Assembly (NCBI GenBank): GCA_963754305.1
Contig: CAVWFR010000040.1
Coordinates: 220,584-284,583, forward strand
Direction: 5' to 3'
DNA length: 64,000 nt
Source of the DNA: an uncultured beta proteobacterium
GTDB taxonomy: Bacteria; Pseudomonadota; Gammaproteobacteria; Burkholderiales; SG8-39
The notes beneath the pieces were generated by a model. It made no database searches. It saw only the letters and a program-made list of their open reading frames with translations, and had not been told where the DNA came from. Shown piece by piece: positions 9,900 to 50,195 of the stretch (its first letter is position 1; each line of letters begins with the position of its first letter). The position numbers were made by a program, and so were the translations under genes.

Positions 9900-9919
9900 T
9901 GTTTACCAGGAGGAGTTCG

Positions 9920-13896: not shown

Positions 13897-15552
13897 TCAC
13901 ATTCTCTCCGGCGCGCTTACGCCCAGCACCCCGAGTCCGTTCGCGATCACCTGCCGCACCGCCCGCGACAGCGCGAGCCGCGCGCGGCGCTCGCTCGCCT
14001 CGGGGACGAGCACGCGGACCGAATTATAGTAACTGTGGAACTCGCCGGCCAATTCGCGCAAATAGAACGCCAGCTGGTGCGGCGCGAGATCGTCCGCCGC
14101 GGCCGCCAGCACGTCCGGGAAGTCCGCGAGCCGCGCGGCGAGCGCCAGCTCGCGCGGATCGTCGAGCGCCGCGAGCTCCGGGCCCGCGGGCGCGCCGGCG
14201 TCGGCCTCGTCGGGGTACGCGCTCCGCCACTGCTCGAACATTCGGCACACGCGCGCGTGCGCGTACTGGACGTAGTAGACCGGGTTCTCCTCCGACTGCG
14301 ATTGCGCCAGGTCGACGTCGAAGACGAACTCCGTGTCGGCCTTGCGCGAGACGAGAAAGAACCGCACCGCGTCCCGCCCGACCTCGTCGATCAGGTCGCG
14401 CAGGGTGACGTAGGTGCCGGCGCGCTTGGAGATCTTCACCTCCTCGCCGCCCTTCATCACCGTGACCATTTTGTGCAGGACGTACTCGGGGTAGCCGGCC
14501 GGGATCCCCAGGTCCGCCGCTTGCAGACCGACGCGCACGCGGGTCACGGTGCTGTGATGGTCCATTCCCTGCACGTTGATCACCTTCTCGAAGCCGCGCT
14601 CCCACTTCGTGATGTGATAAGCGACGTCGGGGACGAAGTAGGTGTAGCCACCATCGGACTTCCGCATCACGCGGTCTTTATCGTCGCCGAAGTCGGTGGT
14701 GCGGAGCCACAGCGCGCCGTCGCGCTCGTAGGTCCGACCCGAATCGGTGAGCCGCTTGACCGCACGCTCCACGCGCCCGTCGGTGTAGAGCGAGCTTTCG
14801 AGATAGTAGTTGTCGAACTTCACGCCGAACGCGCGCAGATCCTCGTCCTGCTCGCGGCGTAGCGCCGCGACGGCGAACTTGCGGATCCGGTCGAGGTCGC
14901 CGAGGTCGTGGCCGACCTCATCGAGGTAGCGTTGCGCGATTTCCCGGATGTACTCGCCGCGGTAGCCGTCCTCGGGGAAGGTGTGGGGCTCGCCGGCGAG
15001 CTCCTGCGCGCGGGCGCGCACCGAGAGGGCGAGATTCTCGATCTGCTGCCCGGCGTCGTTGTAGTAGAACTCGCGCGTGACGCGCGCGCCCTGCGATTCG
15101 AGCAGGCTCGCGATCGCGTCGCCGAGCGCGGCCTGGCGGCCGTGGCCGACGTGCAGCGGCCCGGTCGGATTCGCCGAGACGAACTCGACCATCACGCGCC
15201 GGCCGGCACCGCGGGCGGACCGGCCGTAGGCATCGCCTGCCTCCAGGATCGTCCGCACGATGCCCTGCTTCGCCGCCGGCTTGAGGCGGAAGTTGATGAA
15301 CCCCGGGCCGGCGATCTCGGGCCGATCGATCCACTCGGAGTCGGGTAGCGCCGCGACCAGAGCTTCGGCGAGCTGGCGCGGCGGGCGCTTGAGCGCGCGC
15401 GCGAGTTGCATCGCCGCATTGGTCGCGTAGTCGCCGTGGGCGGGATCGCGCGGACGCTCGAGCACGATCGCGCCCGGCGGCTCATTCGGCGCGACGGCGG
15501 CGAGGGCGCGAGTGACGAGATCGGTGAGGTGAGCGCGAACTGCGGCGGACAT
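13897..15552 (-). CDS. argS: arginine--tRNA ligase
   Basis: ORF 13897..15657. I prefer the ATG at 15552 ([12 protein letters not shown]...), because the upstream extension is made of a REP-like repeat. Class I motifs are [14 protein letters not shown] and the MSKRAG-like ISKRAGTYV. Confidence 0.95.
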
Positions 15553-15604
15553 TGCCCGAGGCCGGGGCGAAGCGGCCGCGGATTGTACCCTTGGAAGAGG
15601 GGTG

Positions 15605-15650
15605 GTGCCCCCGGTGAAGGGGCGTATGCGCTGAAAACGAAGCTGGGGGT
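15605..15650 (-). repeat. REP-like intergenic repeat, copy D
   Basis: The reverse complement caaacccccagcttcgttttcagcgcatacgccccttcaccgggggc aligns along its length with copy A (50196). Confidence 0.65.
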
Positions 15651-15671
15651 TTGTCAACGCCCCTGACTGCT

Positions 15672-15712
15672 CGGCTCGCCGGCGCTCGCCGCCCCCCTTG
15701 ACAGGGGGCGGT
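15672..15712 (+). repeat. REP-like partial repeat, copy D2 (inverted relative to D)
   Basis: gcgctcgccgccccccttgacagggggcggtggcggtag matches the right half of the family (gctcg..CCCCTTGAC.GGGG) and is followed by GTAG. Confidence 0.5.
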
Positions 15713-15735
15713 GGCGGTAGGAAGTAGGGAGAGGA

Positions 15736-16274
15736 CTAGTGGCTCGCGGCCTGGATCGCGGGCTTTGTCGCGGCGACGGACCGACGCGGGCTTCCCGCTG
15801 GCGATCGTGCCGACATCGCCGGTCAGCTCGCCGCCGTCCTCGATGACGATCTTGCCGTAATGGATCTTCCCCGCGACCCGGCCGCTCGGGATGGATGATC
15901 AGCGCCTTGCGGGCGGTCATCTCGCCGTCGAAGCGGCCGCGAATCTCGGCGATGTCGACGCCGACGGTGCCGTGGAACGAGCCGCCTTCCGCGATCTGGA
16001 TCACGCGCGCATCCATCGATGCCTCGACTCTGCCCTCGACCACGAGCGTGTCGCAGTCGGTGATCTCGGCGCCCTTCAGCTTGATGTCCGGCCCGACGAT
16101 GAGCCGGCTACCCTTCGGTTCCTCGACCTTCGGCTTCGGCACCTCCACCGCTTCCTGACGCGGCGGCTCGACGCGCTGCGGCTCGGGCGCCGGCGCGGGC
16201 GCGGACGGCTCGAGCCCGCGCGGGTCGCGGCGATAACGTTCGTTCTGTCCAAACAACCCCTGCTTATTGAGCAT
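15736..16274 (-). pseudogene. bactofilin-family cytoskeletal protein, frame-broken (two +1 switches)
   Basis: ORF 15654..16274 begins with MLNKQGLFG...SRLIVGPDIKLKGAEITDCDTLVVEGRVEASMDARVIQIAEGGSFHGTVGVDIAEIRGRFDGEMTARKALIIHP. The beta-helix repeat continues only in the next frame (SGRVAGKIHYGKIVIEDGGELTGDVGTIASGKPAS) after catCCCgag at about 15888. A second switch at about 15790 gives a natural tail ...VAATKPAIQAASH* with TAG at 15738-15736. Confidence 0.6.
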
Positions 16275-16463: not shown

Positions 16464-16973
16464 ATGCTTCCCTCGAACGTCACCGTGCGCCTTGCCACGC
16501 TCGCCGACGCCGCCGAGATCGCGGACCTGTCGCGGGCGCTGATCGAGACCGGTCTGGGCTGGAGCTGGACGCGCGCGCGGGTCGCGCGGAACATCACCTC
16601 GCCCGCCACCACGACCATCGCGGCGTGCGACGCCGAGCGCCTGATCGCGTTCGCGATCATGTATTTCGGCGACGAGCACGGACATCTCAACCTGCTCGCG
16701 GTGCGTCCGGCGTATCAGCGCTCGGGGGTGGGGCGTCACCTCGTCGAGTGGCTGGAAGCGTCCGCGCTGGCGGCGGGGATCTGCGCGATTCGTCTCGAGC
16801 TGCGTGCCTCCAACCGGGCCGGGCGCCGCTTCTACGAGCGCCTGGGGTTTACCGAGGTCGGCCGCGTGCCGGAGTATTACAGCGGGGTCGAGACGGCGGT
16901 GCGGATGGCGCGCGACATCCGGCGTGCCGCGACTGCGCAGGTGCCGGACTGGCGGCGTCTGCTGCGCGGTTGA
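16464..16973 (+). CDS. GNAT-family N-acetyltransferase (RimI-like)
   Basis: ATG at 16464 inside ORF 15891..16973. Acetyl-CoA motif LLAVRPAYQRSGVGRHLV...RFYERLGF. Confidence 0.85.
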   Translation: MLPSNVTVRLATLADAAEIADLSRALIETGLGWSWTRARVARNITSPATTTIAACDAERLIAFAIMYFGDEHGHLNLLAVRPAYQRSGVGRHLVEWLEASALAAGICAIRLELRASNRAGRRFYERLGFTEVGRVPEYYSGVETAVRMARDIRRAATAQVPDWRRLLRG

Positions 16974-16988: not shown

Positions 16989-17279
16989 TCACGGTGCGCG
17001 CCGGCGCCGCAGCCGGATCGCACCCCTTATTTCGCCGCGCGGGTCGAGAACGCGGCCGCGCCGCGTGATCTCGATCGCGCCGGCCCGCACGAGCGCCAGC
17101 GCCGATGCCCGCACCTCCGGCATCAGCGCGCGCCAGCCCGAAGGGCACGACGCGCGCGCGACCTCGGACGGGCAGATCGAAGCGTCCGGCGAGCGCGCAT
17201 CGAGCAAGCTCAGGATGCGCTGCTCGAAGGCATCTTCGACCATCGCGCCGAGGTTAGCGGACGCCTGAGCGTCGCGCAC
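16989..17279 (-). CDS. DUF3253-like small protein
   Basis: 96-aa ORF. The pattern ICPSEVAR...WRALMPEVRASALALVRAGAIEITRRGRVLDP is recalled as the DUF3253 pattern. The start may be the internal ATG at 17243. Confidence 0.6.
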   Translation of the reverse strand: MRDAQASANLGAMVEDAFEQRILSLLDARSPDASICPSEVARASCPSGWRALMPEVRASALALVRAGAIEITRRGRVLDPRGEIRGAIRLRRRRAP

Positions 17280-17399: not shown

Positions 17400-17525
17400 A
17401 TGGGCAAAGGCGACAGGCGCACCACGCGCGGCAAGCTCTTCGCCGGGTCACACGGCAAGACGCGATCGAAGAAGAGCAACAAATCCGCGGAGACGACGAA
17501 AAAGAACAAGAAGAAGCGGCGCTGA
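17400..17525 (+). CDS. 30S ribosomal protein bTHX (41 aa)
   Basis: Below the ORF-track size cutoff. GGAGG at 17391-17395 is followed by an ATG at 17400. Translation MGKGDRRTTRGKLFAGSHGKTRSKKSNKSAETTKKNKKKRR* has the MGKGDRRT.RGK N-terminus typical of THX. Confidence 0.7.
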   Translation: MGKGDRRTTRGKLFAGSHGKTRSKKSNKSAETTKKNKKKRR

Positions 17526-17537: not shown

Positions 17538-18017
17538 ATGTCGATCGCTGAGCGGTTGCGGGCGCTCGCCCTCGTGCTGCCCGCACCGACGACACCGCCG
17601 CCCGGCGCCAAGCTGCCGTTTGCGTGGGTGCGCGTGATCGGCGATCGCGCGCTGGTTTCGGGACACGGCCCCACCAATCCCGACGGCACGCTCGCGCTGC
17701 CCCTCGGCAAGGTCGGCGCGGAGGTCACGCTCGACCAGGGCTACGCGGCGGCCCGCCTCACCGCGCTCGCGATGCTCGCCAGCCTGCAGCGCGAGCTCGG
17801 CGATCTGGAGCGCGTGGAGCGTTGGGTGCGCGCGTTCGGAATGGTCAATGCGGCCCCCGGCTTCGATCGCTACCCCGCGGTCATCAACGGGTTCTCCGAT
17901 CTGATCCTCGAGCTATGGGGGCCGGAACGCGGCCAGCACGCGCGGAGCGCAGTCGGGATGGCCGGCCTGCCGTTCGGAATTCCGGTGGAGATCGAGGCCG
18001 AGGTGACGCTGCGTTAG
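17538..18017 (+). CDS. RidA/YjgF-family protein
   Basis: 159-aa ORF of RidA-like length. C-terminal pattern RSAVGMAGLPFGIPVEIEAEV. Confidence 0.8.
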   Translation: MSIAERLRALALVLPAPTTPPPGAKLPFAWVRVIGDRALVSGHGPTNPDGTLALPLGKVGAEVTLDQGYAAARLTALAMLASLQRELGDLERVERWVRAFGMVNAAPGFDRYPAVINGFSDLILELWGPERGQHARSAVGMAGLPFGIPVEIEAEVTLR

Positions 18018-18475
18018 CCTTCCTTGCCCCAGCGCTGCCGCAGGGCCACGCACTCCGCCTGCCGCACACCGGTCGCGAGCGCTGGGCCGCCGCCCATCAG
18101 CGCGGCGAACGTTTCCATGCTGTAGGTGCCGAGATCGGTGCGAGCGAGATCGGCGTGCCGCGCGCCGAGCACCACCCGTCCGACGCCCGCGATCTTCACC
18201 GCCCAGGCGCACATCGGGCAGCACTCCATCGTGCTGTAGAGGACCGTGCCGGAAAGGTCGACGGTGCCGAGGTTCCGGAACGCCGCGCGCAGCGCCTCCA
18301 TCTCCGCGTGGCAGGAAAGGTCGTTCCGGGTGTTCTGACGGTTCTGGCCGGTGGCCACGGCGGCACCGTCCTTCACCAGCACCGCCGCCACCGGCCAGTC
18401 GCCGCGGCGGTATGCTTCGTCCGCTTCCTTCAACGCGCGATCCATCCACTGCTCGTCGGTCATCGATCCCTCCAT
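18014..18475 (-). CDS. CDA-fold nucleoside/nucleobase deaminase (zinc-dependent)
   Basis: 153 aa. Zinc motifs CHAEMEAL and ECCPMCAWA. The N-terminus is TadA/guanine-deaminase-like (MDRALKEADEAYRRGDWPVAAVLV). Confidence 0.85.
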   Translation of the reverse strand: MEGSMTDEQWMDRALKEADEAYRRGDWPVAAVLVKDGAAVATGQNRQNTRNDLSCHAEMEALRAAFRNLGTVDLSGTVLYSTMECCPMCAWAVKIAGVGRVVLGARHADLARTDLGTYSMETFAALMGGGPALATGVRQAECVALRQRWGKEG

Positions 18476-18480
18476 TCGCG

Positions 18481-19806
18481 ATGAGCCGAGCTTACGATCT
18501 TCTGCTGCGCGGCGCCACGCTCGTCACCGGCGCCGCGGTCGTACGCGACGGCTGGCTCGCGGTGCAGGGCGACCGGATCGCGGCGCTCGGCGGCGCCGCC
18601 GACCCGATGCCGCCGGCCGCGAAAACGCTCGAGCTCGCCGGGCACGTCGTCACACCCGGCCTGATCAACGTGCACACCCACAGCGCGCTCACGATGGTGC
18701 GCGGCGTCGCGGCCGATCTCGGGTTCGCACCCTCGTACACCAAAGGCATCCCGAATGCGCTCGATCTCGCGCCCGAAGAAGCCGCGGTGCTGGCACGGCT
18801 CGGCGCGGTCGAGGCGCTGTGCTTCGGCTCGACGCTGATCGGCGAGCACTTCGTGCATCTCGATGCCTGCCTGCCCGAGCTCGCGAAACTGGGCCTGCGC
18901 GTGCACGCGAGCCTGCGGCTGCACGACGTCGACTTCCGCGCGGTCGCGGCGGGCGACTGGCGTTTCGACGCCGCGATCGGGGATGATCTCCTCGCCCGAA
19001 ACGTCGCTGCGCACGACACCTGGGACGGCAAGGAGAACGGCCGCATCGCCGTGCAGTTCGCCGCACACGCTGCAGACACCTGCTCCGAGCCGTATCTCGC
19101 GCGGATCGCCGCCGAGGCGCACCGACGCGAGGCCGTCGTCAACACCCATCTCGGGCAGAGCAACGTCGAGGTCGAGCGCGTCGCCGCCCGCACCGGCAAG
19201 ACGCCGGCGCAAGTCTTCGCGCACGCCGGGTTGCTGAACGAACGTCTGCTCTGTGGACATTGCATCTACGTCGACGCCCACGAGATCGCACGGCTGGCCG
19301 CTGCCGGCGCCCACGTCGTGCACATTCCCAAGTGCAATGCAGCGTCGGGACGGCTGGCCCCGACGCCGGCGCTCGCGCGCGCGGGCCTGAACCTCGCACT
19401 CGCGACCGACACGCAGCACGGCGACATGGTCGAGCTGATGCGCTGGGCGCTCGCCACCGCAAGAGTTCAGATCGGCGCGGTGAACGACGACTGGCAGCCG
19501 GAGCACGTCTTCGCGATGGCCACGATCAACGGCGCCCGCGCGCTCGGGCTCGACGCCGACCTCGGAACGCTAGCGCCGGGGAAGAAGGCCGATCTGGTCG
19601 TGTTCGACTTTCGCCGCCCGCACCTCGTCCCGGCGACCGACCCGGTGGGAAACCTGGTGCACGTCGCGCAGGGGCGCGACGTCGTCAAGGTGTTCGTCGA
19701 CGGCCGCTGCGTCGTCGACGATGGCCGTCCGACGCTCGTCGATCTCGACGAGGTGCTTGGCGACGCACGGCGCGTGCTCGACCGGCTGTGGAGGAGGGCC
19801 GCATGA
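18481..19806 (+). CDS. amidohydrolase-superfamily deaminase/chlorohydrolase-like enzyme, paralogue 1
   Basis: ATG at 18481 (MSRAYDLLLRGATLVTG...) within ORF 18412..19806. Metal motif PGLINVHTHS and downstream HCIY, ATDT (Asp). Confidence 0.85.
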   Translation: MSRAYDLLLRGATLVTGAAVVRDGWLAVQGDRIAALGGAADPMPPAAKTLELAGHVVTPGLINVHTHSALTMVRGVAADLGFAPSYTKGIPNALDLAPEEAAVLARLGAVEALCFGSTLIGEHFVHLDACLPELAKLGLRVHASLRLHDVDFRAVAAGDWRFDAAIGDDLLARNVAAHDTWDGKENGRIAVQFAAHAADTCSEPYLARIAAEAHRREAVVNTHLGQSNVEVERVAARTGKTPAQVFAHAGLLNERLLCGHCIYVDAHEIARLAAAGAHVVHIPKCNAASGRLAPTPALARAGLNLALATDTQHGDMVELMRWALATARVQIGAVNDDWQPEHVFAMATINGARALGLDADLGTLAPGKKADLVVFDFRRPHLVPATDPVGNLVHVAQGRDVVKVFVDGRCVVDDGRPTLVDLDEVLGDARRVLDRLWRRAA

Positions 19807-21305
19807 CGAAACGGATCGTGCTGCGTGGCGGTCTTGCGCTGCTCGGCGAGGCGTTCGCGTTCGACCGGAAGCCGATCGATGTCGCGGTCGAGGGCCCGCG
19901 CATCGCCGCGATCGCCCCCGCGGGGAGCCTCGCAGGCGACGAGATCATCGATCTCGCGAACCGGCTGCTCGTTCCCGGCCTCATCAACGGGCACTTCCAC
20001 TCGCACGAGCATTTCCAGCGCGGCCGCGTCGAGAACCTGCCGCTCGAGCTGTGGATGCACTACGTCCGCACGCCCGTCCCGGTGACGCTCAACCCCCGGC
20101 AGACCTACCTCCGCACCCTGATCGGCGCGATCGAGGCGCTCCGCACCGGCGCGACGACGGTCGTCGATGATCTCGCGCTCGGCGGATCGATCAACCGGGC
20201 GAACCTCGACGCGGTCTTCCAGGCCTACGACGACTCGGGCCTGCGCGCGCTGGTCGGGTTCGCGATGATGAACCGCCCGGTGGTGGACAGCTTCCCGTTC
20301 GCGGAAGAGGAGTTCCCGCCGGAGCTGCTCGCGAGCCTGCGCGCGCTGCGGCCGCCGCCCGAGAGCGAGCTGCTCGGGCTCGTGCGCGAGCTCGCTCTCG
20401 CACGCCATCCGCGATCGAGCCGCGCGAGCGTCCTCGTTTCCGCCTCGGCGCCGCAGCGGTGCACGAAGGAGTTCCTCCTCGCCTGCCGGCGGCTCGCCGA
20501 CGAGCTCGAGCTGCCGGTCGTGACGCACGTCCAGGAGACGCGGCTGCAGGTCGTCACCGGGCAGCTCTTCTACGGCAAACCCCAGGTCGAGCACCTGCAC
20601 GACATCGGCTTCCTCACGCCTACGACGAGCCTCATCCACGCGGTCTGGCTGAATCCGCGCGAGATCGCGGCGCTCGCGGCCTCCGGCGCCACCGCCCAGC
20701 ACAACCCGTGGTCGAACCTGATGCTCGGCTCCGGCTACCAGCCGGTGCGGCCGCTGCTGGAGGCGGGCGTGAACGTGAGCCTCGGCTCGGACGGCTCGTG
20801 CTCGACGACGACCGCGAGCATGCTGAACGTGCTCGGCTCCGCCGCGGCGCTGTCGAAGATCCGCGGCGACGACTACACGCGCTGGCTCTCGGCGAAGGAG
20901 GCGCTGCACGCCGGCACCGTTGCCGGGGCGAAGGCGCTCGGCTTTGCCGGCGAGCTCGGCGTCCTCGCGCCCGGCGCGCTCGCCGACCTCGTCGCCTACC
21001 GGCTCGACACGGTCTCGTTCGCGCCGCTGAACGACCCGGTTCAGCAGCTCGTGTACGCGGAGCGCGGCGCCGGCGTCGATCTCGTCATGGTCGACGGCCG
21101 CATCGCGCTGCGCGACGGGCGCCTCACCGGCATCGACGAGCGGGCGATCCTGGGCGAGATCGCGAACGAGTTCGAGCGGCTCGGCGCCGAGTACGCGCGC
21201 GCCGAAGCGTCCGTCGGCCCGATGCGCGCCGTCATGGAGCGCATCTATCGCCGCGCGCTGAAAGTTTCGATTGCGCCGGACACCTATCCGGCGCGCTTAC
21301 CCTGA
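19803..21305 (+). CDS. amidohydrolase-superfamily enzyme, paralogue 2 (longer, about 500 aa)
   Basis: ATG at 19803 overlaps the previous stop (ATGA). The protein MTKRIVLRGG... has PGLINGHFHSHEH and later THVQE, HAVW and GSDGS. Confidence 0.85.
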   Translation: MTKRIVLRGGLALLGEAFAFDRKPIDVAVEGPRIAAIAPAGSLAGDEIIDLANRLLVPGLINGHFHSHEHFQRGRVENLPLELWMHYVRTPVPVTLNPRQTYLRTLIGAIEALRTGATTVVDDLALGGSINRANLDAVFQAYDDSGLRALVGFAMMNRPVVDSFPFAEEEFPPELLASLRALRPPPESELLGLVRELALARHPRSSRASVLVSASAPQRCTKEFLLACRRLADELELPVVTHVQETRLQVVTGQLFYGKPQVEHLHDIGFLTPTTSLIHAVWLNPREIAALAASGATAQHNPWSNLMLGSGYQPVRPLLEAGVNVSLGSDGSCSTTTASMLNVLGSAAALSKIRGDDYTRWLSAKEALHAGTVAGAKALGFAGELGVLAPGALADLVAYRLDTVSFAPLNDPVQQLVYAERGAGVDLVMVDGRIALRDGRLTGIDERAILGEIANEFERLGAEYARAEASVGPMRAVMERIYRRALKVSIAPDTYPARLP

Positions 21306-21316
21306 AAGGAACGACC

Positions 21317-22153
21317 ATGAAACGGCGTGATCTGCTGAAGCTTTCCGTCGCCGGCGCCGCCGGCATGCTGCTTCCCCGCATCACCGGCGCGCAAGGCGTC
21401 ACGCTGGCCCAGATCAAGGCGAGCGGCGAGCTGCGCATCGGCTGCGAGGCGGCCTACGTACCGTTCACGTACCGTCAGGAAGGCAAGATCGTCGGCTACG
21501 ACGTGGAGCTCGCCGATATCTTCTGCAAGACGCTCGGCGTGAAGCCGAACTTCATCGACACCGCGTGGGCGGGCGTGATCCCGTCGCTTTACGCGAAGAA
21601 GTTCGAAATCATCATGAGCTCGATGAGCTACACCAAGGAGCGGCTCGAGAGAGTGGCGTTCACCGTGCCGTACGCCGAGGCGTCGCAGGCGATGCTGATC
21701 CGCGCCGGCGATACCGGGGCAATCAAAGGCGTTCCCGACCTCAACGGACGGATCATCGCGGTCAAGCTCGGCTCACCCGGCCAGATTCTCCAGGAGCGGA
21801 TCGCGACCGGTCTCAAGGCCGCGGGCGGCGCCGGGTTCAAGGAGGTGCGCGTGTTCGACGATCACCCGTCGGCCTACGTCGCGCTGGCACAGAACAGAGT
21901 CGATGCGGTGCTGAACACCGTCCCGACGCTCGCGATGGTGCTGAAGGACGCTCCCGGCAAGTACGCGATGGTCAGGGGCGTCGGCGCCGACAACTGGGCC
22001 GGTATCGCGGTGCGCAAGGAGGATCCCGAGCTGGTCGCGTTCCTCAATGGCGAGCTCGAGCGGCTGAAGAAGGACGGCACCCTCTACAAGCTGCAGGAGA
22101 AATGGTTCGGCTTCCGCATGACGCTCGCGGACAAGATCCCGACGTTCTCCTGA
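21317..22153 (+). CDS. polar amino-acid-type ABC transporter substrate-binding protein
   Basis: ATG at 21317. Twin-arginine-like signal MKRRDLLKLSVAGAAGMLLP. The SBP_bac_3-like core includes LRIGCEAAYVPFTY and GYDVELA. Confidence 0.9.
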   Translation: MKRRDLLKLSVAGAAGMLLPRITGAQGVTLAQIKASGELRIGCEAAYVPFTYRQEGKIVGYDVELADIFCKTLGVKPNFIDTAWAGVIPSLYAKKFEIIMSSMSYTKERLERVAFTVPYAEASQAMLIRAGDTGAIKGVPDLNGRIIAVKLGSPGQILQERIATGLKAAGGAGFKEVRVFDDHPSAYVALAQNRVDAVLNTVPTLAMVLKDAPGKYAMVRGVGADNWAGIAVRKEDPELVAFLNGELERLKKDGTLYKLQEKWFGFRMTLADKIPTFS

Positions 22154-22161
22154 CGCCGTCC

Positions 22162-22815
22162 GTGGCGTTCGACTGGGGGTTGGTGGAGAAATCGATCCCG
22201 CTCCTCGGGGCGGGATTGCTCACGACGATCAGGATCTGCCTGCTTGCGATGCTGGTCGGGCTCGTGCTCGGCGGGCTGCTCGGGCTCGCGTCGCTGTCGC
22301 GGTTCGCGCCGCTCCGCTGGGCGGTCACGGCGTACGTGGACTTCATCCGCGGCACGCCGCTCTTGATCCAGATCTTCCTGGTGTACTTCGCGCTGCCGGT
22401 GGTCGGGGTCAACCTCCCCGAGTTCTGGGCCGGCGTGATCGCGCTCGGGCTGAACGCCGCGGGGTTCATCGCCGAGATCGTGCGCGCCGGCGTCGGGTCG
22501 ATCGAGAAGGGCCAGGCCGAGGCGGCGCGCTCGATCGGCATGCGCCACGGGCAGATCCTGTTCCACGTGCTGCTGCCGCAATCGCTCCGGGCGGTGGTGC
22601 CGCCGACGACCAACGAGCTGATCACCCTCGTCAAGGGCTCGGCGCTGCTTTCGGTGATCTCCGTGTACGAGCTGACGCGCGCCGGGCAGGCGATCATCTC
22701 GGTGCACTTCGCGCCGTTCGAGATCTATCTGATGATCGCGCTCTACTACTACGCCACCATCTCTTTCCTAGCCTGGCTGTCACGGTGGATCGAGCGGCGC
22801 CTGCCGGTCTGGTGA
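22162..22815 (+). CDS. amino-acid ABC transporter permease
   Basis: In-frame GTG at 22162 inside ORF 21565..22815. His/Glu/Gln/Arg-type permease blocks are FIRGTPLLIQIFLVYFALP and EAARSIGM. Confidence 0.85.
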   Translation: MAFDWGLVEKSIPLLGAGLLTTIRICLLAMLVGLVLGGLLGLASLSRFAPLRWAVTAYVDFIRGTPLLIQIFLVYFALPVVGVNLPEFWAGVIALGLNAAGFIAEIVRAGVGSIEKGQAEAARSIGMRHGQILFHVLLPQSLRAVVPPTTNELITLVKGSALLSVISVYELTRAGQAIISVHFAPFEIYLMIALYYYATISFLAWLSRWIERRLPVW

Positions 22816-23570
22816 TGCCGCCGGTTATCGCGAGCGAGGGGCTCTGCAAGGCCTACGGCGGTCGGGTCGTGCTCGATCGCGTGTCGCTGGCGGTGGAAGA
22901 GGGCGAGACGGTAGTGGTGATCGGGCCCTCGGGCTCGGGCAAGACGACGCTGCTCCGCTGCCTCAACCGGCTCGAGACACCTGATTCGGGCATCGTGCGC
23001 CTGCGTGGCGAGCCGGTAGGCCAGGATGTCGCGGGTCGACCGCTGCCGGAGCGCGATCTGGCGCGCCAGCGCAGCCGCATCGGGTTCGTCTTCCAGCGCT
23101 TCAACCTGTTCGCGCACCTCAGCGCGCTCGACAACGTCGCGATCGGCCCGCGCCGCGTGCTCGGGCTTGGAGTCGAGCAGGCGCGCGAGCGGGCGCGCGA
23201 GGAGCTCGCTCGCGTCCATCTCCAGGAGCACACGGCAAAGCGGCCGAACCAGCTCTCGGGCGGCCAGCAGCAGAGAGTCGCGATCGCGCGGGCGCTCGCC
23301 ATGCACCCGGAGCTGATCCTGTTCGACGAGCCGACCTCGGCGCTAGACCCGGAGCTCGTGACCGAGGTCGTGGACGTCATGCAAGAGCTCGCCGACTCGG
23401 GCCTCACCCTGCTCGCGGTGACGCACGAGATGCGGTTCGCGCGCGCGGCGGCCGACCGGGTCGTCCTGATGGATGCCGGCGCCGTCGTGGAGGTGGGCAC
23501 GCCGGAGGCGGTGTTCGGCGCGCCGCGCGAGGAACGGACGCGCAAGTTCCTGGCTCACCTGCACGAATGA
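22815..23570 (+). CDS. amino-acid ABC transporter ATP-binding protein
   Basis: ATG at 22815 overlaps the permease stop (GTGATG). Walker A GPSGSGKTT, signature LSGGQQQRVAIARAL, Walker B LILFDEPTSALD. Confidence 0.9.
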   Translation: MPPVIASEGLCKAYGGRVVLDRVSLAVEEGETVVVIGPSGSGKTTLLRCLNRLETPDSGIVRLRGEPVGQDVAGRPLPERDLARQRSRIGFVFQRFNLFAHLSALDNVAIGPRRVLGLGVEQARERAREELARVHLQEHTAKRPNQLSGGQQQRVAIARALAMHPELILFDEPTSALDPELVTEVVDVMQELADSGLTLLAVTHEMRFARAAADRVVLMDAGAVVEVGTPEAVFGAPREERTRKFLAHLHE

Positions 23571-24898
23571 CCCGCTTCGACACGCTGATCCTTGGCGCCA
23601 CCGCGCTCACCTGCGACGCGGCCGATCGAGTCATCGAGGACGCGGCGATCGGCATCACCGGCGGCCGGATCGCCTACATCGGCCCGCGGATCGATGCTCA
23701 GGCCGATCGCTTGCTCCGCCTCGCCGGCCGGGTCGTCACACCCGGGTTCGTGAACGTCCACACCCACGCCGTTCTCACCATGGTGCGCGGCGTCGCGGAG
23801 GACCTCGGCTTCGCCCCGGCCTACACGCCGGGCATCCCGCACGGCCACGACGTCACCCCCGACGAGGCGTACGCGCTCGCGCGGCTGGGGGCGGCCGAAG
23901 CGCTCCTCTTCGGCTCGACGCTCGTCAACGATACCTACGTGCACGCGGACATCACGATGGATGCCATGTCGGCGCTCGGCCTGCGGGTCTGGAATTGCGG
24001 GCGGGTTCACGACGCGGATTTCTCGCTCATCGGGGACGGCCGCTGGGAGCACCGGACCGAGATCGGGGAGCGCACGCTCGGCGAGGCGCTCGCGCTGGCG
24101 GAGAAGTGGCACGGCGCGCGCGACGGCCGCTGCGGCGTGCAACTCGCGGCGCACGCGCCCGACACCTGCTCCGACGCTTTCCTGGTCGAGATCCGCAAGG
24201 CCGCCGAAGGCGGGGGCCTGCGCGTCAACACCCATCTCGCGCAGTCGAAGACCGAGGTGCGGCAGGTGCTCGCCCGGTCCGGCCGCACGCCGGCCCAGCT
24301 GCTCGACGAGGTCGGGTTGCTGAACGAGCGCCTGATCGCCGCGCATTGCATCCACATGGACGACGCCGATATCGCACGCTGCGGCCGCGCCAAGCTCAAT
24401 GTCGCGCACGTGCCCAAGGGCAACGCGACCGGTGCGACGATCGCGCCGACGGCGAAGCTGCGCTCGGCGGGCGCGCGCCTCGCGCTCGGTACCGACAACA
24501 TGCACGCCGACATGGTCGAGGCGATGCGTTGGGCGCTCGCCGTCGCGCGCATCCAGGAAGGCCGGGTCACCGATGCCTGGCAGCCCCGCGACGTGCTGCG
24601 CATGGCCACCATCGACGGCGCGCGCGCGATGGGCCTCGCTGCGGATATCGGCTCCCTCGAGACCGGGAAGAAGTGCGACCTCGTCGCGTTCGATTTCCGC
24701 CGGCCGCATCTCGTGCCCGCGGTGAATCCCGCCGGGACGCTGGTGCACACCGGCCAGGGCCGCGACGTCGAGCTCGTCATGGTGGACGGCGCCGTCGTGG
24801 TCGAGGACGGCCGGCCGATGCGGGCCGATCTGGACACGATCCTGCGCGAGGGACAGGCGGCCGCCGATGCGCTCTGGGCGCGTGCGCGGGAGGGCTGA
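23567..24898 (+). CDS. amidohydrolase-superfamily deaminase-like enzyme, paralogue 3
   Basis: 443 aa with an ATGA overlap with the ATPase gene. It is colinear with paralogue 1 (PGFVNVHTHA, NTHLAQSKTEV, HCIHM, GTDN). Confidence 0.85.
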   Translation: MTRFDTLILGATALTCDAADRVIEDAAIGITGGRIAYIGPRIDAQADRLLRLAGRVVTPGFVNVHTHAVLTMVRGVAEDLGFAPAYTPGIPHGHDVTPDEAYALARLGAAEALLFGSTLVNDTYVHADITMDAMSALGLRVWNCGRVHDADFSLIGDGRWEHRTEIGERTLGEALALAEKWHGARDGRCGVQLAAHAPDTCSDAFLVEIRKAAEGGGLRVNTHLAQSKTEVRQVLARSGRTPAQLLDEVGLLNERLIAAHCIHMDDADIARCGRAKLNVAHVPKGNATGATIAPTAKLRSAGARLALGTDNMHADMVEAMRWALAVARIQEGRVTDAWQPRDVLRMATIDGARAMGLAADIGSLETGKKCDLVAFDFRRPHLVPAVNPAGTLVHTGQGRDVELVMVDGAVVVEDGRPMRADLDTILREGQAAADALWARAREG

Positions 24899-25785
24899 TG
24901 GCGCGAGACCTGCGTGGGTACGCCGGACGCTATCCGCAGATGCGCTGGCCCGACCGCGCACGCGTCGCCGTGTCGGTGGTGCTGAACATCGAAGAGGGCG
25001 CCGAGCTCGCGATCTCCGCCGGCGACGAGCGGAACGAGACGATTCACGAAGCGGTGCAGCGGGTCGACGGCGCCCCCGATCTCTGCATCGAGAGCCACTT
25101 CGAGTACGGTTCGCGCGTGGGTTACTCGCGCATCTGCGACACCGCGCAGGCGCTCGGTGTGCCGCTCACGCTCAACGCGTGCGCCCGCGCGCTCGAAGCC
25201 ACGCCGTGGGTCGGCACCGACGCCGCGGCGCGCGGCTACGAGATCTGCTGCCACGGCTACCGCTGGGAGCCGCACGCGGGGATGGACGAGGCGCACGAGC
25301 GGGCGCTGATCGCCAAGTGCGTGGACATCATCCGGCGCGTCCACGGCAAGCCGCCGATCGGCTGGCACACGAAGTCCTCCGCCTCGGTCAACACGCGCCG
25401 GCTGCTCGCCGAGGCGGGCTTTCTGTACGACAGCGACGCCTACAACGACGACGCGCCGTACTACGTCGAGGCGGGCGGCAAGCCGCATCTCGTCCTGCCG
25501 TACGCCTTCGACACCAACGACATGCGCTTCCTGGATGGCCACGCGTTCTTGCGCGGGAGCGATTTCGCCGGCTACTGTGCGGATGCGTTCGACCGGCTGT
25601 GGGAGGAGGGTGCGCACGCGCCGCGGATGCTGTCGATCGGCCTGCACACCCGCATCATCGGCCGGCCCGGGCGGATCGGCGGGCTCGTCGAGCTGCTGCG
25701 GCACATGCGTGCGAAGGGCGAGGTGTGGTTCGCTCGCCGCGAGGACATCGCGCGGCACTGGCTCGAGCACGTACCGCCCCGATGA
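24898..25785 (+). CDS. polysaccharide-deacetylase-fold hydrolase, PuuE (allantoinase)-like
   Basis: ATG at 24898 overlaps the previous stop (TGATG). The protein MARDLRGYAGRYPQMRWPDRARVAVSVVLNIEEGAE... has CHGYRW and NDDAPYY blocks, recalled from PuuE-type proteins. Confidence 0.75.
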   Translation: MARDLRGYAGRYPQMRWPDRARVAVSVVLNIEEGAELAISAGDERNETIHEAVQRVDGAPDLCIESHFEYGSRVGYSRICDTAQALGVPLTLNACARALEATPWVGTDAAARGYEICCHGYRWEPHAGMDEAHERALIAKCVDIIRRVHGKPPIGWHTKSSASVNTRRLLAEAGFLYDSDAYNDDAPYYVEAGGKPHLVLPYAFDTNDMRFLDGHAFLRGSDFAGYCADAFDRLWEEGAHAPRMLSIGLHTRIIGRPGRIGGLVELLRHMRAKGEVWFARREDIARHWLEHVPPR

Positions 25786-25943
25786 CTGAGCCGGCGCGGG
25801 AGATTACGGCGCGCGTGCCGCGCCGGGCGATGTCGGCACGCGAAGCTTGCCAGGCCGCTCTCGATCGCGCCGCGCGGCGCAATCTCGCGCTGAACGCGGC
25901 CGTCACGGCTCGCACCCTCGTTCCCCCACTGGAGGCACCATGA
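25782..25943 (+). other. 53-aa ORF resembling the N-terminus of an amidase-signature enzyme (possible gene remnant)
   Basis: MTEPAREITARVPRRAMSAREACQAALDRAARRNLALNAAVTARTLVPPLEAP*. The ATG overlaps the PuuE-like stop (ATGA) and the TGA overlaps the next ATG (ATGA). The pattern SA.E....AL.R......LNA resembles amidase N-termini, but no catalytic region follows. Confidence 0.35.
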
Positions 25944-26899
25944 TCGTTCGCCTGCTTCTCGCCGCACTCGCCTGTCTGTTCGCCGCGTCCGCGCTGGCGC
26001 AATACCCCGATCGCCCGCCGAAGATCCTCGTCCCGTTCCCGCCGGGCGGCGCGGCGGATACGTTCGCGCGGCTGGCCGGCGACCGCCTCGGCACCGCGTG
26101 GGGGAAGCAGGTGATCGTCGAAAACCGCCCCGGCGCGGGCGGGATCATCGCCACGGAGGCGGCGGCGAAGTCGGCGCCCGACGGCTACACGTTTCTCATC
26201 GTGACCGTGGGCCACGCCGTGAACCCGAGTCTCTATCCGAAGCTGCCCTACGACACGCTCGCCGATTTCGCGCCGATAGCGATGGTGGCGAACGTGCCCA
26301 ACGTGCTGGTGGTGCATCCGTCGGTGCCGGCCAACTCGGTGCGGGAGCTGGTCGCGCTCGCCAAGAAATCCCCGGGGAACCTCAAGTACGCATCGTCCGG
26401 CAATGCGACGACCTCGCACATGGCGGCGGCCCTGCTCGCGAATCTCGCCGGGGTCGAGATGCTGCATGTCCCCTACAAGGGCGCCGCCCCCGCGGTGCAG
26501 GACCTCGTCGCCGGCCGGGTGGACCTCATGCTCGACCCGACCGTCTCCTCGGGCGCGTTCGTCAAGCAGGGCCGGCTGAGGGCGCTCGCGGTGACGACCG
26601 CAAAACGCACGCCGCTCCTCCCGGAGCTGCCGACGATCGCGGAGGCGGGCGTGCCGGGCTACGAGTTCAGCGCGTGGTTCCTGCTGCTTGCGCCGGCGCG
26701 GACGCCGGCCGAGCCGGTCGCGCGGGTCAACGCCGATCTCGCGCGGCTCGCCTCCGACGCGGGCTACCGCGAACGGCTCGCGGCCCTCGGCGCCGAGGCC
26801 GCTCCGCCGCTCTCGCCCGCGCAGGTCGGCGAGTTCGTCGCCGGCGAGATCAAACGCTGGGCGAAAGTCGTCAAGGAGGCCAACATCAAGGTGGAGTGA
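25940..26899 (+). CDS. Bug-family (TctC-like) substrate-binding protein
   Basis: ATG at 25940 with GGAGG at 25931. Signal peptide MIVRLLLAALACLFAASALA/QYPDRPPK. Bug motifs VPFPPGGAADT and ENRPGAGG. Confidence 0.9.
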   Translation: MIVRLLLAALACLFAASALAQYPDRPPKILVPFPPGGAADTFARLAGDRLGTAWGKQVIVENRPGAGGIIATEAAAKSAPDGYTFLIVTVGHAVNPSLYPKLPYDTLADFAPIAMVANVPNVLVVHPSVPANSVRELVALAKKSPGNLKYASSGNATTSHMAAALLANLAGVEMLHVPYKGAAPAVQDLVAGRVDLMLDPTVSSGAFVKQGRLRALAVTTAKRTPLLPELPTIAEAGVPGYEFSAWFLLLAPARTPAEPVARVNADLARLASDAGYRERLAALGAEAAPPLSPAQVGEFVAGEIKRWAKVVKEANIKVE

Positions 26900-26969: not shown

Positions 26970-27294
26970 CTAGAGTGACTCGCGAAGCCGATGGAACCGC
27001 TCCACCGGCGTGACCCATGCGACCCCGTCGCCCGCGCGGCCGGTGTGGCAGGCCTCGTGGATGATCGCGAGCAGGCGGTCGACCTCATCGTCGGGCACGA
27101 CGAGCTCGATCCGCACCTTCTGCGTATACTCGGTCAGCTCGCCCTTGATGCCGGCCGCGTGCGGCTTGCCCGGGTGGTAGCCCGACCCCTCCGCGCGCGT
27201 CACGGTCATCCCGGGGAAGTCCGGGATCCTTCGAAACGCCTCGCGCAGGCGCGTGAGGCGGTTCGGCTGGATGAGTCGCTTTGATCTCTTTCAT
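26970..27294 (-). pseudogene. P-II-like (GlnB-fold) small protein downstream of czcA, one frame break
   Basis: ATG at 27294 gives MKEIKA. The PII-like sequence then continues only in the next frame (LIQPNRLTRLREAFRRIPDFPGMTVTRAEGSGYH...KVRIELVVPDDEVDRLLAIIHEACHTGRAGDGVAWVTPVE, which is ORF 26970..27209). The extra base is at about 27275 (aaagcgActcatcc). Confidence 0.6.
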
Positions 27295-27324: not shown

Positions 27325-30300
27325 TCATGCCTCGATGCGCCTCTCCTCGAAGAAGCGATACAGCGCCGGTACCACCAGCAGCGTCAGCGCGGTGGACGTG
27401 ATCAGGCCGCCGATCACCACGATCGCGAGCGGCCGCTGCACCTCCGAGCCCGGCCCGGTCGCGAACAGGAAGGGGATCAGGGCGAGCAATGCGACCGTGG
27501 CCGTCATCATCACCGGGCGAAACCGCAGCTTCGCCCCCTCCACGATCGCCTCGCGCGTGCCGAGGCCCTCGTCGCGCAGCTTCCGGATATATGACACCAG
27601 CACGACGCCGTTCAAGACCGCGATGCCCCATAGCGCGATGAACCCGACCGAGGCCGGCACCGACAGGTACTCGCCGGTGACCGCGAGCGCGATGACGCCG
27701 CCGATCGAGGCGAACGGCAGCACGGTGATGATCAGCGTCGCGAACCGCAGGCTGTTGAAGAGCAGGAAAAGCAGGAAGAAGATCGCCGCGATCGTGACCG
27801 GCACGATGATCATCAGGTGCCCGAGCGCGCGCTGCAGGTTCTCGAACTGCCCGCCCCAGTCGAGGTAGTAGCCCTCGGGCAGCTTCACCTGCGCCGCCAC
27901 CTTCTGTTGCAGCTCGGCGACGAAGCCGCCGAGATCGCGGCCCGTCACGTTGATGCCGACGACGATGCGCCGTTTGGCCGTCTCGCGGCTGATCTGCGCC
28001 GGGCCGTCCACCACCTCGATCTTCGCCAGGCTCTCGAGCGGCACGATCGCGCCCTGCGCGGAGGTGAGCGTGATGCGGCGGATCTCGGCCACGCTGTCGC
28101 GCAGGCTCTCGGGCAGCCGCACCACCGCGGCGAAGCGCCGCTCGCCCTCGTAGATCTCGGTCGCGCGCTTGCCGCCGACCGACGTCTCGATCGCGTCGTT
28201 GACGTCGGACGCGTTCAGTCCCACCCGCGCGATCGCCTGGCGGTCGATCGCGATGGTGAGGTACTGCTGGCCGGTGATCCGGTCGACGCGGAAATCGCCC
28301 ACCCCGCGGATGCCGGCCGCGATGCGCGCGATCTCGTCGGCCTTCTGCTTCAGGATCGCGAGATCGTCGCCGAAGATCTTCACCGCGATGTCGGCGCGTA
28401 CGCCGGTCACCATTTCGTCGATGCGGTCGGAGATCGGCTGCGCCATGACGATCTGCACGCCCGGGATCGCCTTGAGCTTCTCGCGGATCGCCGCGGCGAT
28501 GTCGTCCTGCGTCCAGCCGCTCGGCCACTCGCTCCGCGGCTTGAGGCTCACGATCGGGTCGGCCTCGTTGGGCCCGGCCGGGTCGGCCGGGCTCTCGCCG
28601 CGGCCGATCCGCGACACCGCCGATTTCACCCCGGGGACCTCGAGCACGAGCCGCATCGCCTCCTTCTCGAGCTCGATCGATTCCTCGAGCGAGATGTTCG
28701 GCACGCGGTCCATCGCCGGCGAGATCGAGCCCTCCTTCATCTCGGGGATGAACGCGGTGCCGAGAAAGGGGACGACGGCGAGCGTCGCGACGAAGAGCGC
28801 CACCGCGCCGCCGACGGTCTTCTTCTCGTTCGCAAGCGCCCAGTCGAGCAGGCGCAGGTAAGGCCGCTTGATCGTTCGGATCAGCCAGGTGTCGTGCTCG
28901 GCGCCGCCCTTGAGCATGAAGGAGGCGAGCGCGGGCGACAGCGTCAGCGAGATCGCCAGCGAGATCGCGAGCGCTATCGCGATCGTGTAGGCGAGCGGCG
29001 CGAACATCTTGCCTTCCATGCCCTGCAGGGTCATGAGCGGCAGGAACACGAGGATGATGATGCCGACGCCGAAGATCACCGGCGTGGCGACCTCGAGCAC
29101 CGCCTCCAGGATCACCCGCGCCCGCGACTCCCCGGGGCGTTCGCCCAGCTTGGAGAACGCGTGCTCGATCACCACCACCGAGCCGTCGACCATCAGGCCG
29201 ATCGCGATCGCCAGGCCGCCGAGCGACATCAGGTTTGCCGACAGACCGTAGCGGTTCATCACGACGAACGTGAGGAGCGGCGTCAGCACCAGCGTCGCGA
29301 CCACGATGACGCTCGAGCGCACGTCGCCGAGGAAGAGGAACAGCACCACGACCACGAGCGCCACGCCCTCGAGCAACACCTTGGTGACCGTCCAGAGCGC
29401 CTCGTCCACCAGCTCGGAGCGGTCGTAGTAGGGCGCGATCTTCAGCCCGCCGGGGAGCATGTTCCGGTCGTTGATCTCCTTGACTCTCGCCTTGACGCGG
29501 CCGACCACCTCCTTCGCGTTGCCGGCGCGGATCATCATCACGATCCCGCCGGCCGCCTCGGTGTACCCGTCCTTCACCATCGCGCCCGCGCGCACCTCTT
29601 CGCCCAGGGTGACCTCGGCGACGTCGCGGATGTACACCGGCGTGCTCCCGACCTCCTTCAGCACGATCGAGCGGATGTCGTCGAGGTCGCGGATCAGGCC
29701 GACCCCGCGCACCAGGTACTGCTCGGCGCGCTGAGGCAGCACGCCGCCGCCGGAGTTGGCGTTGTTGCGGGCAAGCGCCTGGTAGACGTCGCCGATGGAG
29801 ACCTTGTAGTAGCGGAGGCGGTTCGGGTCGACGAGCACCTGGTACTGCTTGACGAAGCCGCCGGTCGAATTGATCTCGGCGACACCGGGGATCGAGCGGA
29901 GGAGCGGGCGCACGACCCAGTCCTGCACCGTGCGGCGCTCGATCAGCTCGTCCTTGGTGAGCGCGCGCTTGCCGTCATCGGGGCGCTCGAGGATGTACTG
30001 GTAGACCTCGCCGAGCGCGGTCGATACCGGCCCCAGCACCGGGGTGACGCCGATCGGCAGGCTCGCTCCGACCTCGAGCAGCCGCTCCATCACGAGCTGG
30101 CGCGCGAAATAGACGTTGGTGGCATCGGTGAAGACGAGCGTGATCAGCGACAGACCGGGCTTGTTGAGCGAACGCAGCTCGGTCAGGCCCGGCAGCCCGG
30201 TCATCGCGATCTCGAGCGGCACGGTGACGAACCGCTCGACCTCCTCGGGCGAGCGGCCCGGCGCCTCGGTCGCGATCTGGACCTGGACGTTGGTGACGTC

Positions 30301-50145: not shown

Positions 50146-50195
50146 GAATCCCGCCGGACACCACGAACGAGCGCGGGGAGTTTACACCCGGTGCC

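Follow-up and report, generated by a model that had tools for sequence, protein, structure and literature searches.

A reduced copy of a possible hydrolytic nitrogen-scavenging gene cluster in an uncultured Burkholderiales bacterium

A 64,000-nucleotide stretch of DNA from an uncultured beta proteobacterium (contig CAVWFR010000040.1; hereafter the window), with a G+C content of about 70%, carries a tightly coupled + strand operon at 18481-26899. It encodes three amidohydrolases (AH1, AH2 and AH3), an ABC importer, a protein resembling the allantoinase PuuE, a remnant of an amidase and a Bug/TctC-family receptor, and a CDA-fold deaminase gene diverges from it. The original prediction was an uncharacterised pathway stripping a purine-, pterin- or triazine-like N-heterocycle step by step. 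Our results support the hydrolytic, nitrogen-releasing character of the operon and lead us to a modified reading, to which we give a little less than even credence: the window holds a reduced copy of a modular, widely conserved cluster that scavenges nitrogen hydrolytically by the steps proposed below. What is new is the unassigned, widespread combination of genes, with one mechanistically odd subfamily in it; the enzyme superfamilies and the hydrolytic logic are known.

The gene map was drawn from a six-frame listing of open reading frames (ORFs) and domain scans of the window. All the ORFs described before were found in place: AH1 (441 aa, 18481-19806; PF01979, 170 bits), AH2 (500 aa, 19803-21305; Amidohydro_1), an SBP_bac_3 periplasmic binding protein of the polar-amino-acid type (21317-22153; PF00497, 134.5 bits), an ABC permease (BPD_transp_1, about 22162-22815; PF00528, 78 bits), an ABC ATPase (ABC_tran, 22815-23570; PF00005, 125.5 bits), AH3 (443 aa, 23567-24898; Amidohydro_1), the PuuE-like protein (295 aa, 24898-25785; Polysacc_deac_1), the amidase remnant (53 aa, 25782-25943) and, as the last cistron, the Bug/TctC-family periplasmic receptor (25940-26899; PF03401, 238 bits). 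The six stop/start overlaps that had been reported are exact, with ATGA at 19803, 23567, 25782 and 25940 and TGATG at 22815 and 24898. The two junctions that do not overlap are short: the binding-protein gene starts at ATG 21317, 11 bp past the AH2 stop, and the permease most likely starts at GTG 22162, about 8 bp past the binding-protein stop. No ATG, GTG or TTG occurs at that stop codon, so the permease start, which is uncertain, was placed downstream of it. Because of the stop/start overlaps, the nine cistrons are predicted to be co-translated and hence, very likely, co-transcribed.

The CDA-fold deaminase gene (153 aa, 18014-18475, - strand) is indeed divergent, with its start codon 5 bp from that of AH1 (17 bp if the deaminase starts at its second Met), and the RidA/YjgF-family gene next to it (159 aa, 17538-18017, + strand) overlaps the deaminase stop by 4 bp. 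In related loci the tblastn matches of the CDA and AH1 genes lie 18-98 bp apart, and the CDA gene is antisense between + strand ABC genes and AH1/AH2. Given this tight spacing and the antisense position of the CDA gene, the operon promoter must lie inside or beyond the deaminase gene. The five terminator-like sites found are at chance level (3.0 ± 1.7 in shuffled sequence), and an Rfam scan of the whole window and seven related loci revealed no riboswitch in or near the cluster that would disclose its ligand.

AH2 was taken as the anchor gene of the conserved cluster. Among 8000 candidates scored, 1295 were homologues of AH2 at E ≤ 1e-30, the best 120 being 65-92% identical to it. A locus search over one genome per species, with two AH2 peptide patterns, gave 143 confirmed stretches; 80 were fetched and labelled by tblastn with a reference set made of proteins from the window and three annotated contigs, at identity thresholds of our own choosing. 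The cluster is carried by Variovorax, Pseudacidovorax, Pseudorhodoferax, Xylophilus, Ramlibacter, Rubrivivax, Methylibium, Paraburkholderia and Candidatus Rokuibacteriota. In the two closest loci, L004 (CAZTXP010000200.1) and L006, antisense genes for a racemase-like protein and an SBP_bac_1 protein are followed by genes for an ATPase and two permeases and by the antisense CDA gene, and then by AH1, AH2, SBP3 (the SBP_bac_3 protein), permease, ATPase, AH3, PuuE-like, racemase-like, amidase and TctC. Protein identity to the window is 66-90% in L004 and 56-85% in L006, and dN/dS against these two loci is 0.13-0.43 for every intact gene, indicating purifying selection over most of the divergence. 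Since the gene order of the window recurs in both loci under such ratios, the arrangement is no chance juxtaposition. The database titles of L004, L005 and L070 name them as metagenome-assembled genomes of "uncultured Enterobacteriaceae" or "Bordetella parapertussis"; their gene content is Burkholderiales/Comamonadaceae-like, and the titles are probably taxonomic mislabels of metagenome bins.

Linkage was counted in 48 well-flanked loci, those in which AH2 has 6 kb or more on either side, all frequencies being conditional on AH2, by whose patterns the loci had been picked. The SBP_bac_1-type ABC system was linked in 79% of these loci, a GntR regulator and the amidase in 75% each, the PuuE-like gene and a gene resembling EutA and arylmalonate decarboxylase in 69% each, the CDA-fold deaminase in 65% (antisense and just upstream of AH1/AH2 in 31 of the 48), an AH1/3-type gene in 60%, a Cys-less hydantoin-racemase-like gene in 48%, the SBP3 cassette in 35% and a dihydropyrimidinase in 33%. 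A cyclic-amide hydrolase (the PuuE-like protein and/or dihydropyrimidinase) was present in 42 loci, an amidase or M20 carbamoylase-type enzyme in 37 and both in 36. When ten window proteins and seven proteins of related loci were scanned against Pfam and NCBIfam, only the dihydropyrimidinase, which the window does not have, passed a specific cut-off (PRK13404, 794 bits against 647). The Rubrivivax and Methylibium versions combine dihydropyrimidinase, AH2 and amidase without a PuuE-like gene, and the Rokubacteria form consists of YjgF, M20, PuuE-like, an ABC system and AH2. Since non-homologous enzymes are interchangeable at the second and third positions, what appears to be conserved is a chemical order of deamination by AH2, ring opening and carbamoyl or amide hydrolysis.

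The related loci contain further genes. A hydantoin-racemase-family gene lies between the PuuE-like gene and the amidase in L004 (14721-15356), L006 (10582-11226), L061 (11553-12305) and about 20 other loci; its product keeps NPNxT and has VSLD and AGAAMA at the two catalytic-cysteine sites. Because both catalytic cysteines are replaced, we regard it as a conserved Cys-less "pseudo-racemase". Racemase-like copies elsewhere in L015, L053 and L055 (AFGDPG and AGAPLAG) are missing the cysteines too. A second gene of the Asp/Glu-racemase superfamily (L003, 3606-4334; orthologues in 33 of the 48 loci) matches EutA and arylmalonate decarboxylase best, far below their cut-offs; its first catalytic-Cys site is occupied by Gly and its second by the Cys of a CTNL motif, the pattern of a decarboxylase and not of a racemase, and it is usually paired with dihydropyrimidinase and the GntR regulator. 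A MOSC-domain protein is encoded after the amidase or the PuuE-like protein in a single sub-lineage (L003, 16707-17576; orthologues in L013, L019, L026 and L065). MOSC proteins reduce N-hydroxylated bases and amidoximes, and the gene may hint that the pathway takes in N-hydroxylated analogues as well.

The three amidohydrolases had been described as paralogous, which holds for AH1 and AH3 (53% identical) and less well for AH2, only about 28% identical to either. All three match PF01979 (155-179 bits). A profile survey placed none of them in a characterised cog0402 group: among the models for guanine, 8-oxoguanine, 5'-deoxyadenosine and MTA/SAH deaminases, HutF, SsnA and TRZ/ATZ hydrolases, scores were less than half of the NCBIfam equivalog cut-offs (AH1 224 against 540, AH2 237 against 617, AH3 265 against 609), with many sub-threshold matches to the TRZ/ATZ, 8-oxoguanine, 5'-deoxyadenosine and MTA/SAH deaminase models. 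The nearest solved structures (AtzA, Pa3170, Cv1032, AtzB and an Oleispira protein; phmmer E about 1e-40 to 1e-45) are, judged by these scores, distant matches below ortholog level.

The metal and catalytic residues of cog0402 (HxH, β5 His, β6 His and β8 Asp) are kept in AH1, AH2 and AH3, and H65/H67, H223, H260 and D310 (AH1 numbering) are invariant in both amidohydrolase subfamilies. On the other hand, the catalytic Glu of the HxxE motif, three residues past the β5 His, is present only in AH2 (HVQET), which has the signature of a canonical HxxE amidohydrolase/deaminase. This Glu was found in 74 of 85 AH2-family hits in the loci and in 110 of 120 homologues, and the set HFHSHEH ... HVQET ... 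H ... D is invariant in 16 orthologues. In AH1 (HLGQS) and AH3 (HLAQS) it is replaced by Gln, at a position where direct alignment places the Glu of AtzA (HMAES, Glu246) and Pa3170 (HVHET). Gln occupies this position in 45 of 48 AH1/AH3-type orthologues in the loci, in 111 of 120 close homologues and in 67 of the 129 full-length 50%-identity representatives nearest AH3 (57 have Glu), and it is dominant among AH3 relatives down to about 33% identity. Because Gln is so widespread, the HxxQ clade appears to be a large and old subfamily rather than a decayed gene. To our knowledge the Glu of HxxE shuttles protons in every characterised deaminase and dechlorinase of this branch. AH1 and AH3 are thus probably not canonical deaminases, a deaminase label for the clade (such as "MTA/SAH deaminase" in the JGI annotation) is unsafe, and the four deamination steps envisaged at most for the operon become doubtful.

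The PuuE-like protein scores 311.1 bits against TIGR03212, below the curated cut-off of 424.6, and matches Pseudomonas fluorescens PuuE (3CL6) at E 1.2e-82, with an identity of about 50% as estimated from the printed alignment. Of the six proteins searched against PDB sequences (AH1-AH3, the PuuE-like protein, the CDA-fold deaminase and the binding protein), it alone has a strong match to a characterised enzyme (PuuE, E 1e-83), at the level of a paralogue. Aligned with 3CL6 and 1Z7A it conserves NIEEG, HGYRW and GLHTR, that is, the Glu-His-Trp triad that replaces the metal triad in PuuE and the His of GLH(C/T)R (PMC11424739). Twenty-nine positions that are at least 90% conserved among the 120 closest homologues differ from three canonical PuuE-type sequences, several of them beside catalytic motifs, and NCBI names the orthologues only "polysaccharide deacetylase family protein". 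From its residues we predict a paralogue of the allantoinase PuuE acting as a metal-independent cyclic-amide hydrolase. There are precedents for ring opening by this fold outside allantoin: the imidase BpIH, of the PuuE-fold/polysaccharide-deacetylase family (PMC11424739), and DdaH of the iprodione pathway, a polysaccharide-deacetylase-family ring opener whose step is flanked by those of an amidase and an M20 hydrolase (PMC12927932). No genes of urate oxidation or allantoate breakdown were recognised in the annotated part of the window (14-31 kb) or in the inspected ORFs of three related loci; the 80 loci were labelled only against the reference proteins of the cluster, so that the absence of such genes there is non-exhaustive.

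The CDA-fold deaminase has the CHAE and CCPMC motifs and matches PF00383 with 91.7 bits. Its nearest structures are TadA and the guanine deaminase of Bacillus subtilis; since it scores 79.5 against the TadA equivalog, whose NCBIfam cut-off is 150, it is not TadA. The RidA-family protein passes PF14588 (50.7 bits, cut-off 35) and falls short of PF01042 (25.0 against 27.3), and its translation contains the motif HARSAV with the conserved Arg. The Arg of ARSAV is characteristic of Rid proteins that hydrolyse imines. In Rokubacteria (L002/L009) the first gene of the cluster encodes a homologue of the RidA-family protein (47% identical). The Burkholderiales loci have none in the place that the gene takes in the window, and the only homologue seen in them, in L064, is weak (36% identical). 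RidA is therefore not a conserved member of the Burkholderiales clusters, and whether its gene belongs to the system is uncertain.

The importers are distributed in a way that bears on the number of substrates. In 20 of 21 loci the gene next after the SBP3-permease-ATPase cassette is of the AH3 type, AH2 comes after the SBP_bac_1-type ABC system in related loci, and in Variovorax and Ottowia-type loci other amidohydrolases adjoin NitT/TauT-type ABC systems. This pairing of each amidohydrolase type with its own importer suggests that several related substrates are funnelled in, and not that a single molecule goes through four steps, and we favour several entry routes into a shared lower pathway. 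The structures nearest the SBP_bac_3 protein are Arg/Gln-type binders. The binding protein was compared with a provisional sequence of E. coli GlnBP, in which the listed contact residues fell where they should. The window protein keeps the carboxylate-binding Arg75 and has Thr at the position of Asp157, which binds the alpha-ammonium group, and Glu, Tyr and Trp at the side-chain positions 10, 13 and 50. These five residues are invariant in 21 of 21 orthologues. They suggest that the ligand bears a carboxylate and a nitrogen group that is delocalised or cationic, and no free alpha-amino group. Since the carboxylate-binding Arg is kept, the ligand is probably carboxylate-bearing, which speaks against the bare purine, pterin or triazine that had been proposed. 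TctC orthologues 79-83% identical to that of the window stand in the same place, after the amidase, in L004 and L006. A second Bug/TctC receptor, 42% identical to that of the operon, is encoded about 7 kb upstream (9896-10873, + strand), with no linked TctA/B.

The 53-aa ORF had been called an amidase-like remnant, and this was borne out: it aligns with the amidase N-termini of L004 (46% identity), L006, L008, L024, L001 and L003. About 45 N-terminal residues and the last few codons are left of a protein of about 450-470 aa, and the last codons with their ATGA overlap with tctC resemble the end of the L004 amidase, as expected for an in-frame internal deletion of about 400 codons. The remnant thus lacks the amidase-signature domain (about 450 aa with a Ser-cisSer-Lys triad); the GGSSGG region of the L001 and L003 amidases is among the parts deleted. 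A tblastn search of the whole 64 kb with the reference proteins of the cluster found no intact amidase-signature gene. None of the eight remaining + strand genes is truncated, nor is the CDA gene, and their catalytic motifs are intact. The copy in the window may have been inactivated recently, and its pathway would either end at a ring-opened amide or ureido acid or depend on genes elsewhere in the genome.

From family membership and gene neighbourhood we propose the following scheme. A carboxylate-bearing, nitrogen-rich compound would be imported by the amino-acid-type ABC system. AH3, which is linked to the importer and has an intact metal site with Gln for the proton-shuttling Glu, may act first; the replacement would agree with a substrate that already carries a proton on its ring or amidine nitrogen. 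AH2 and the CDA-fold deaminase would then turn amino or imino groups outside the ring into oxo groups, giving a hydantoin- or ureide-like ring that the PuuE-like enzyme would open without a metal. In intact clusters an amidase-signature enzyme, or an M20 carbamoylase in Rokubacteria, would finally release NH3, or NH3 and CO2. Across genomes the ring opener would be either the PuuE-like enzyme or a dihydropyrimidinase/hydantoinase and the last hydrolase either amidase or M20, and several related substrates probably feed this one lower pathway via amidohydrolase-specific importers. The residues of the binding protein, together with the order of deaminase, hydantoinase-like and carbamoylase-like enzymes, point to iminohydantoin- or creatinine-like cyclic guanidines or ureides, or to carboxylated relatives of these, as our best guess at the substrate class. 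A bolder version, which we put forward as an outside chance, is that the AH1/AH3-type clade, AH2, the PuuE paralogue and the amidase make up an unrecognised, widespread bacterial route for mineralising cyclic guanidines or iminohydantoins, in which non-orthologous enzymes take the place of all those of the classical creatinine and hydantoinase routes. Its substrates may be creatinine- or glycocyamidine-like compounds or free products of oxidised guanine such as guanidinohydantoin/iminoallantoin, and the Gln may be suited to cyclic amidinium or guanidinium carboxylates that stay protonated permanently.

That the operon strips a single poly-amino or oxo N-heterocycle, be it melamine or ammeline, a pterin or a purine, with the CDA-fold deaminase, AH1, AH2 and AH3 acting in turn and the PuuE-like enzyme opening the ring, now seems improbable to us. 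TRZ/ATZ hydrolases, 8-oxoguanine and MTA/SAH deaminases and AtzA are the best matches of the amidohydrolases, and four putative deaminases do stand in a single unit; yet two of these, AH1 and AH3, do not have the catalytic Glu, the genes occur independently of each other in the related loci (65%, 60% and 35% for the CDA, AH1/3-type and SBP3 modules), each amidohydrolase type travels with its own importer, and that of the window is of the amino-acid type with a carboxylate-binding Arg. Nor were a cyanuric acid hydrolase, an allophanate hydrolase or a molybdenum hydroxylase recognised in the annotated 14-31 kb, and the tblastn search of the 64 kb gave no intact amidase-signature gene. Ordinary purine catabolism, with guanine- or 8-oxoguanine-type deaminases and the PuuE-like protein as the allantoinase of the organism, would account for the strong match to PuuE with its catalytic residues kept and for the labels "allantoinase" and "guanine deaminase" that JGI pipelines give to some homologues. 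We rate it lower still, as very unlikely, in view of the sub-threshold TIGR03212 score, guanine and 8-oxoguanine deaminase scores far under their cut-offs, the 29 subfamily-specific substitutions, the non-committal NCBI name of the orthologues and the fact that no uricase, HIU hydrolase, OHCU decarboxylase, allantoicase or ureidoglycolate enzyme was recognised in the same 14-31 kb or the inspected ORFs of the three loci. The original prediction had noted the absence of urate oxidase, cyanuric acid hydrolase and ureidoglycolate enzymes from the window.

A different objection is that the window cluster is an evolutionary remnant, an incomplete pathway that is silent or kept for a partial side activity. 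The loss of some 400 amidase codons is what such decay would produce, and it goes together with the absence of a promoter-like site, of flank synteny with any of the 83 loci compared, and, from all 64 kb, of the GntR, SBP_bac_1-type ABC, racemase-like and dihydropyrimidinase genes. Against it, every other gene is intact and has evolved under purifying selection, the deletion leaves both the reading frame and the ATGA coupling to tctC undisturbed, a linked amidase is missing in 12 of the 48 related loci too, and the missing genes could be elsewhere in the genome; we consider decay unlikely, somewhat less so than the two preceding alternatives. The nitrogen-scavenging reading has weak points of its own. 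With its amidase deleted the system in the window may be non-functional, and neither the regulator nor the racemase, dihydropyrimidinase and SBP_bac_1-type genes of its relatives accompany it; there are only 5 bp between the divergent start codons, and a promoter scan of the cluster gave no sigma-70-like site. The Gln-for-Glu change means that the chemistry of AH1 and AH3 could be unrelated to the proposed first step, no sarcosine- or amino-acid-oxidising genes and no urease are linked, and the functional steps, the co-occurrence figures and the binding-site comparison stand on family and neighbourhood, on loci chosen by AH2 and on a provisional GlnBP sequence, respectively.

If the nitrogen-scavenging reading is true, soil and freshwater Burkholderiales and Rokubacteria would share a common, unannotated way of recovering nitrogen from ring compounds of a class about whose fate in bacteria little is known, and functions could be given to three populous groups of "amidohydrolase / polysaccharide deacetylase family protein" that annotation pipelines mislabel as MTA/SAH deaminase, guanine deaminase and allantoinase. 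The HxxQ clade would in addition be an enzymological puzzle, with the metal site kept and the canonical proton shuttle missing. The value of the finding lies in the conserved cluster and this clade more than in the copy in the window; as that copy is trimmed, a phenotype should first be sought in organisms with the full cluster.

On its upstream side the cluster is preceded by argS (13897-15657, - strand), a bactofilin gene (15654-16274, - strand), a GNAT acetyltransferase gene (about 16464-16973, + strand), a small ORF (16989-17279, - strand) and an ORF for a very basic peptide of 41 aa (MGKGDRRTTRGKLFAGSHGKTRSKK...; 17400-17525, + strand), which we take to resemble ribosomal protein THX; the latter has a good GGAGG-type ribosome-binding site and ends 12 bp upstream of the RidA-family gene. 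Downstream, convergent with tctC, is a 79-aa ORF (26970-27209, - strand) that covers no more of the P-II nitrogen-regulator domain than its C-terminal three-quarters and lies just downstream of a gene for an AcrB-type RND pump (1031 aa, 27325-30420, - strand). Farther away the window contains a match to 6S/SsrS RNA (37822-38004, - strand; 50.8 bits against a Rfam gathering score of 46.4) and a full-length match to the cobalamin riboswitch (49948-50180, - strand; 84.7 bits), directly upstream of a 643-aa - strand ORF (48001-49932).

The original prediction could not place the operon in a textbook pathway, and neither could we: no equivalog cut-off was reached by its proteins, the structure matches of its amidohydrolases were distant, and no paper describing the cluster or assigning it a function was found in the full-text literature searched, subscription-only literature lying outside that search. 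The topics covered were PuuE paralogues, cog0402, the context of arylmalonate decarboxylase, Variovorax, chlorohydrolase with deacetylase, the creatinine pathway and iminohydantoin/oxidised guanine. Three known pathways were set aside: that of the s-triazines for want of AtzD/E/F, canonical purine catabolism for want of urate or allantoate genes and because of the sub-threshold PuuE score, and ectoine catabolism, to which there is only weak EhuA-D and EutA similarity, with no DoeA/B. Breakdown of vicine/divicine or of Fapy-type aminopyrimidines and salvage of the thiamine pyrimidine were considered as well.

In the creatinine deaminase pathway creatinine is converted to N-methylhydantoin, N-carbamoylsarcosine and sarcosine, classically by a CodA-type deaminase, an ATP-dependent HyuA/HyuB N-methylhydantoinase and an isochorismatase-like carbamoylsarcosine amidase. 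The cluster would follow the same three-step logic of an amidohydrolase-superfamily deaminase, a cyclic-ureide hydrolase and an N-carbamoyl or amide hydrolase releasing NH3 and CO2; all the families differ, however, the cluster having a TRZ/ATZ-like amidohydrolase, a PuuE-fold enzyme or dihydropyrimidinase and an amidase-signature or M20 enzyme, without linked sarcosine-oxidising genes. The hydantoinase process uses a hydantoin racemase, a hydantoinase/dihydropyrimidinase and an N-carbamoyl-amino-acid amidohydrolase. Related loci resemble it in their cut-off-passing dihydropyrimidinase/D-hydantoinase, their hydantoin-racemase-family genes and, in Rokubacteria, the M20 carbamoylase-type enzyme, whereas the window holds none of the three genes, the racemase-like proteins beside the amidase are without both catalytic cysteines, and the cluster adds deaminases which that process does not need. 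With PuuE of P. fluorescens the PuuE-like protein has in common the fold, the Glu-His-Trp triad and the GLH histidine; it differs in adjoining AH2 and the amidase and in never lying beside urate-oxidation or allantoate genes in the loci examined.

AtzA, TriA, AtzB and TrzN belong to the same Amidohydro_1 branch as AH1-AH3, and among solved structures AH1 comes closest to AtzA (E 1e-40). The similarity to the s-triazine enzymes is nevertheless distant (phmmer E about 1e-25 to 1e-45) and reaches no equivalog cut-off, AH1 and AH3 have Gln at Glu246 of AtzA, and no equivalents of AtzD, AtzE or AtzF were recognised in the annotated 14-31 kb or in the loci. The amidase of the cluster stays below the cut-offs for AtzE (199, cut-off 461) and allophanate hydrolase (168, cut-off 487). 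The IpaH-DdaH-DuaH pathway of Paenarthrobacter, in which an amidase, a polysaccharide-deacetylase-family hydantoin opener and an M20 hydrolase act in series on iprodione (PMC12927932), is a precedent for combining a PuuE-like enzyme with an amidase and an M20 enzyme; it is directed at a xenobiotic, plasmid-borne and from Actinobacteria, and has no cog0402 amidohydrolases. By equivalog cut-offs, accessory genes and the catalytic Glu of AH1 and AH3, the cluster falls outside the triazine and purine pathways. By analogy, the region would work like hydrolytic nitrogen release of the creatinine/hydantoinase type, borrowing folds from the triazine and purine pathways.

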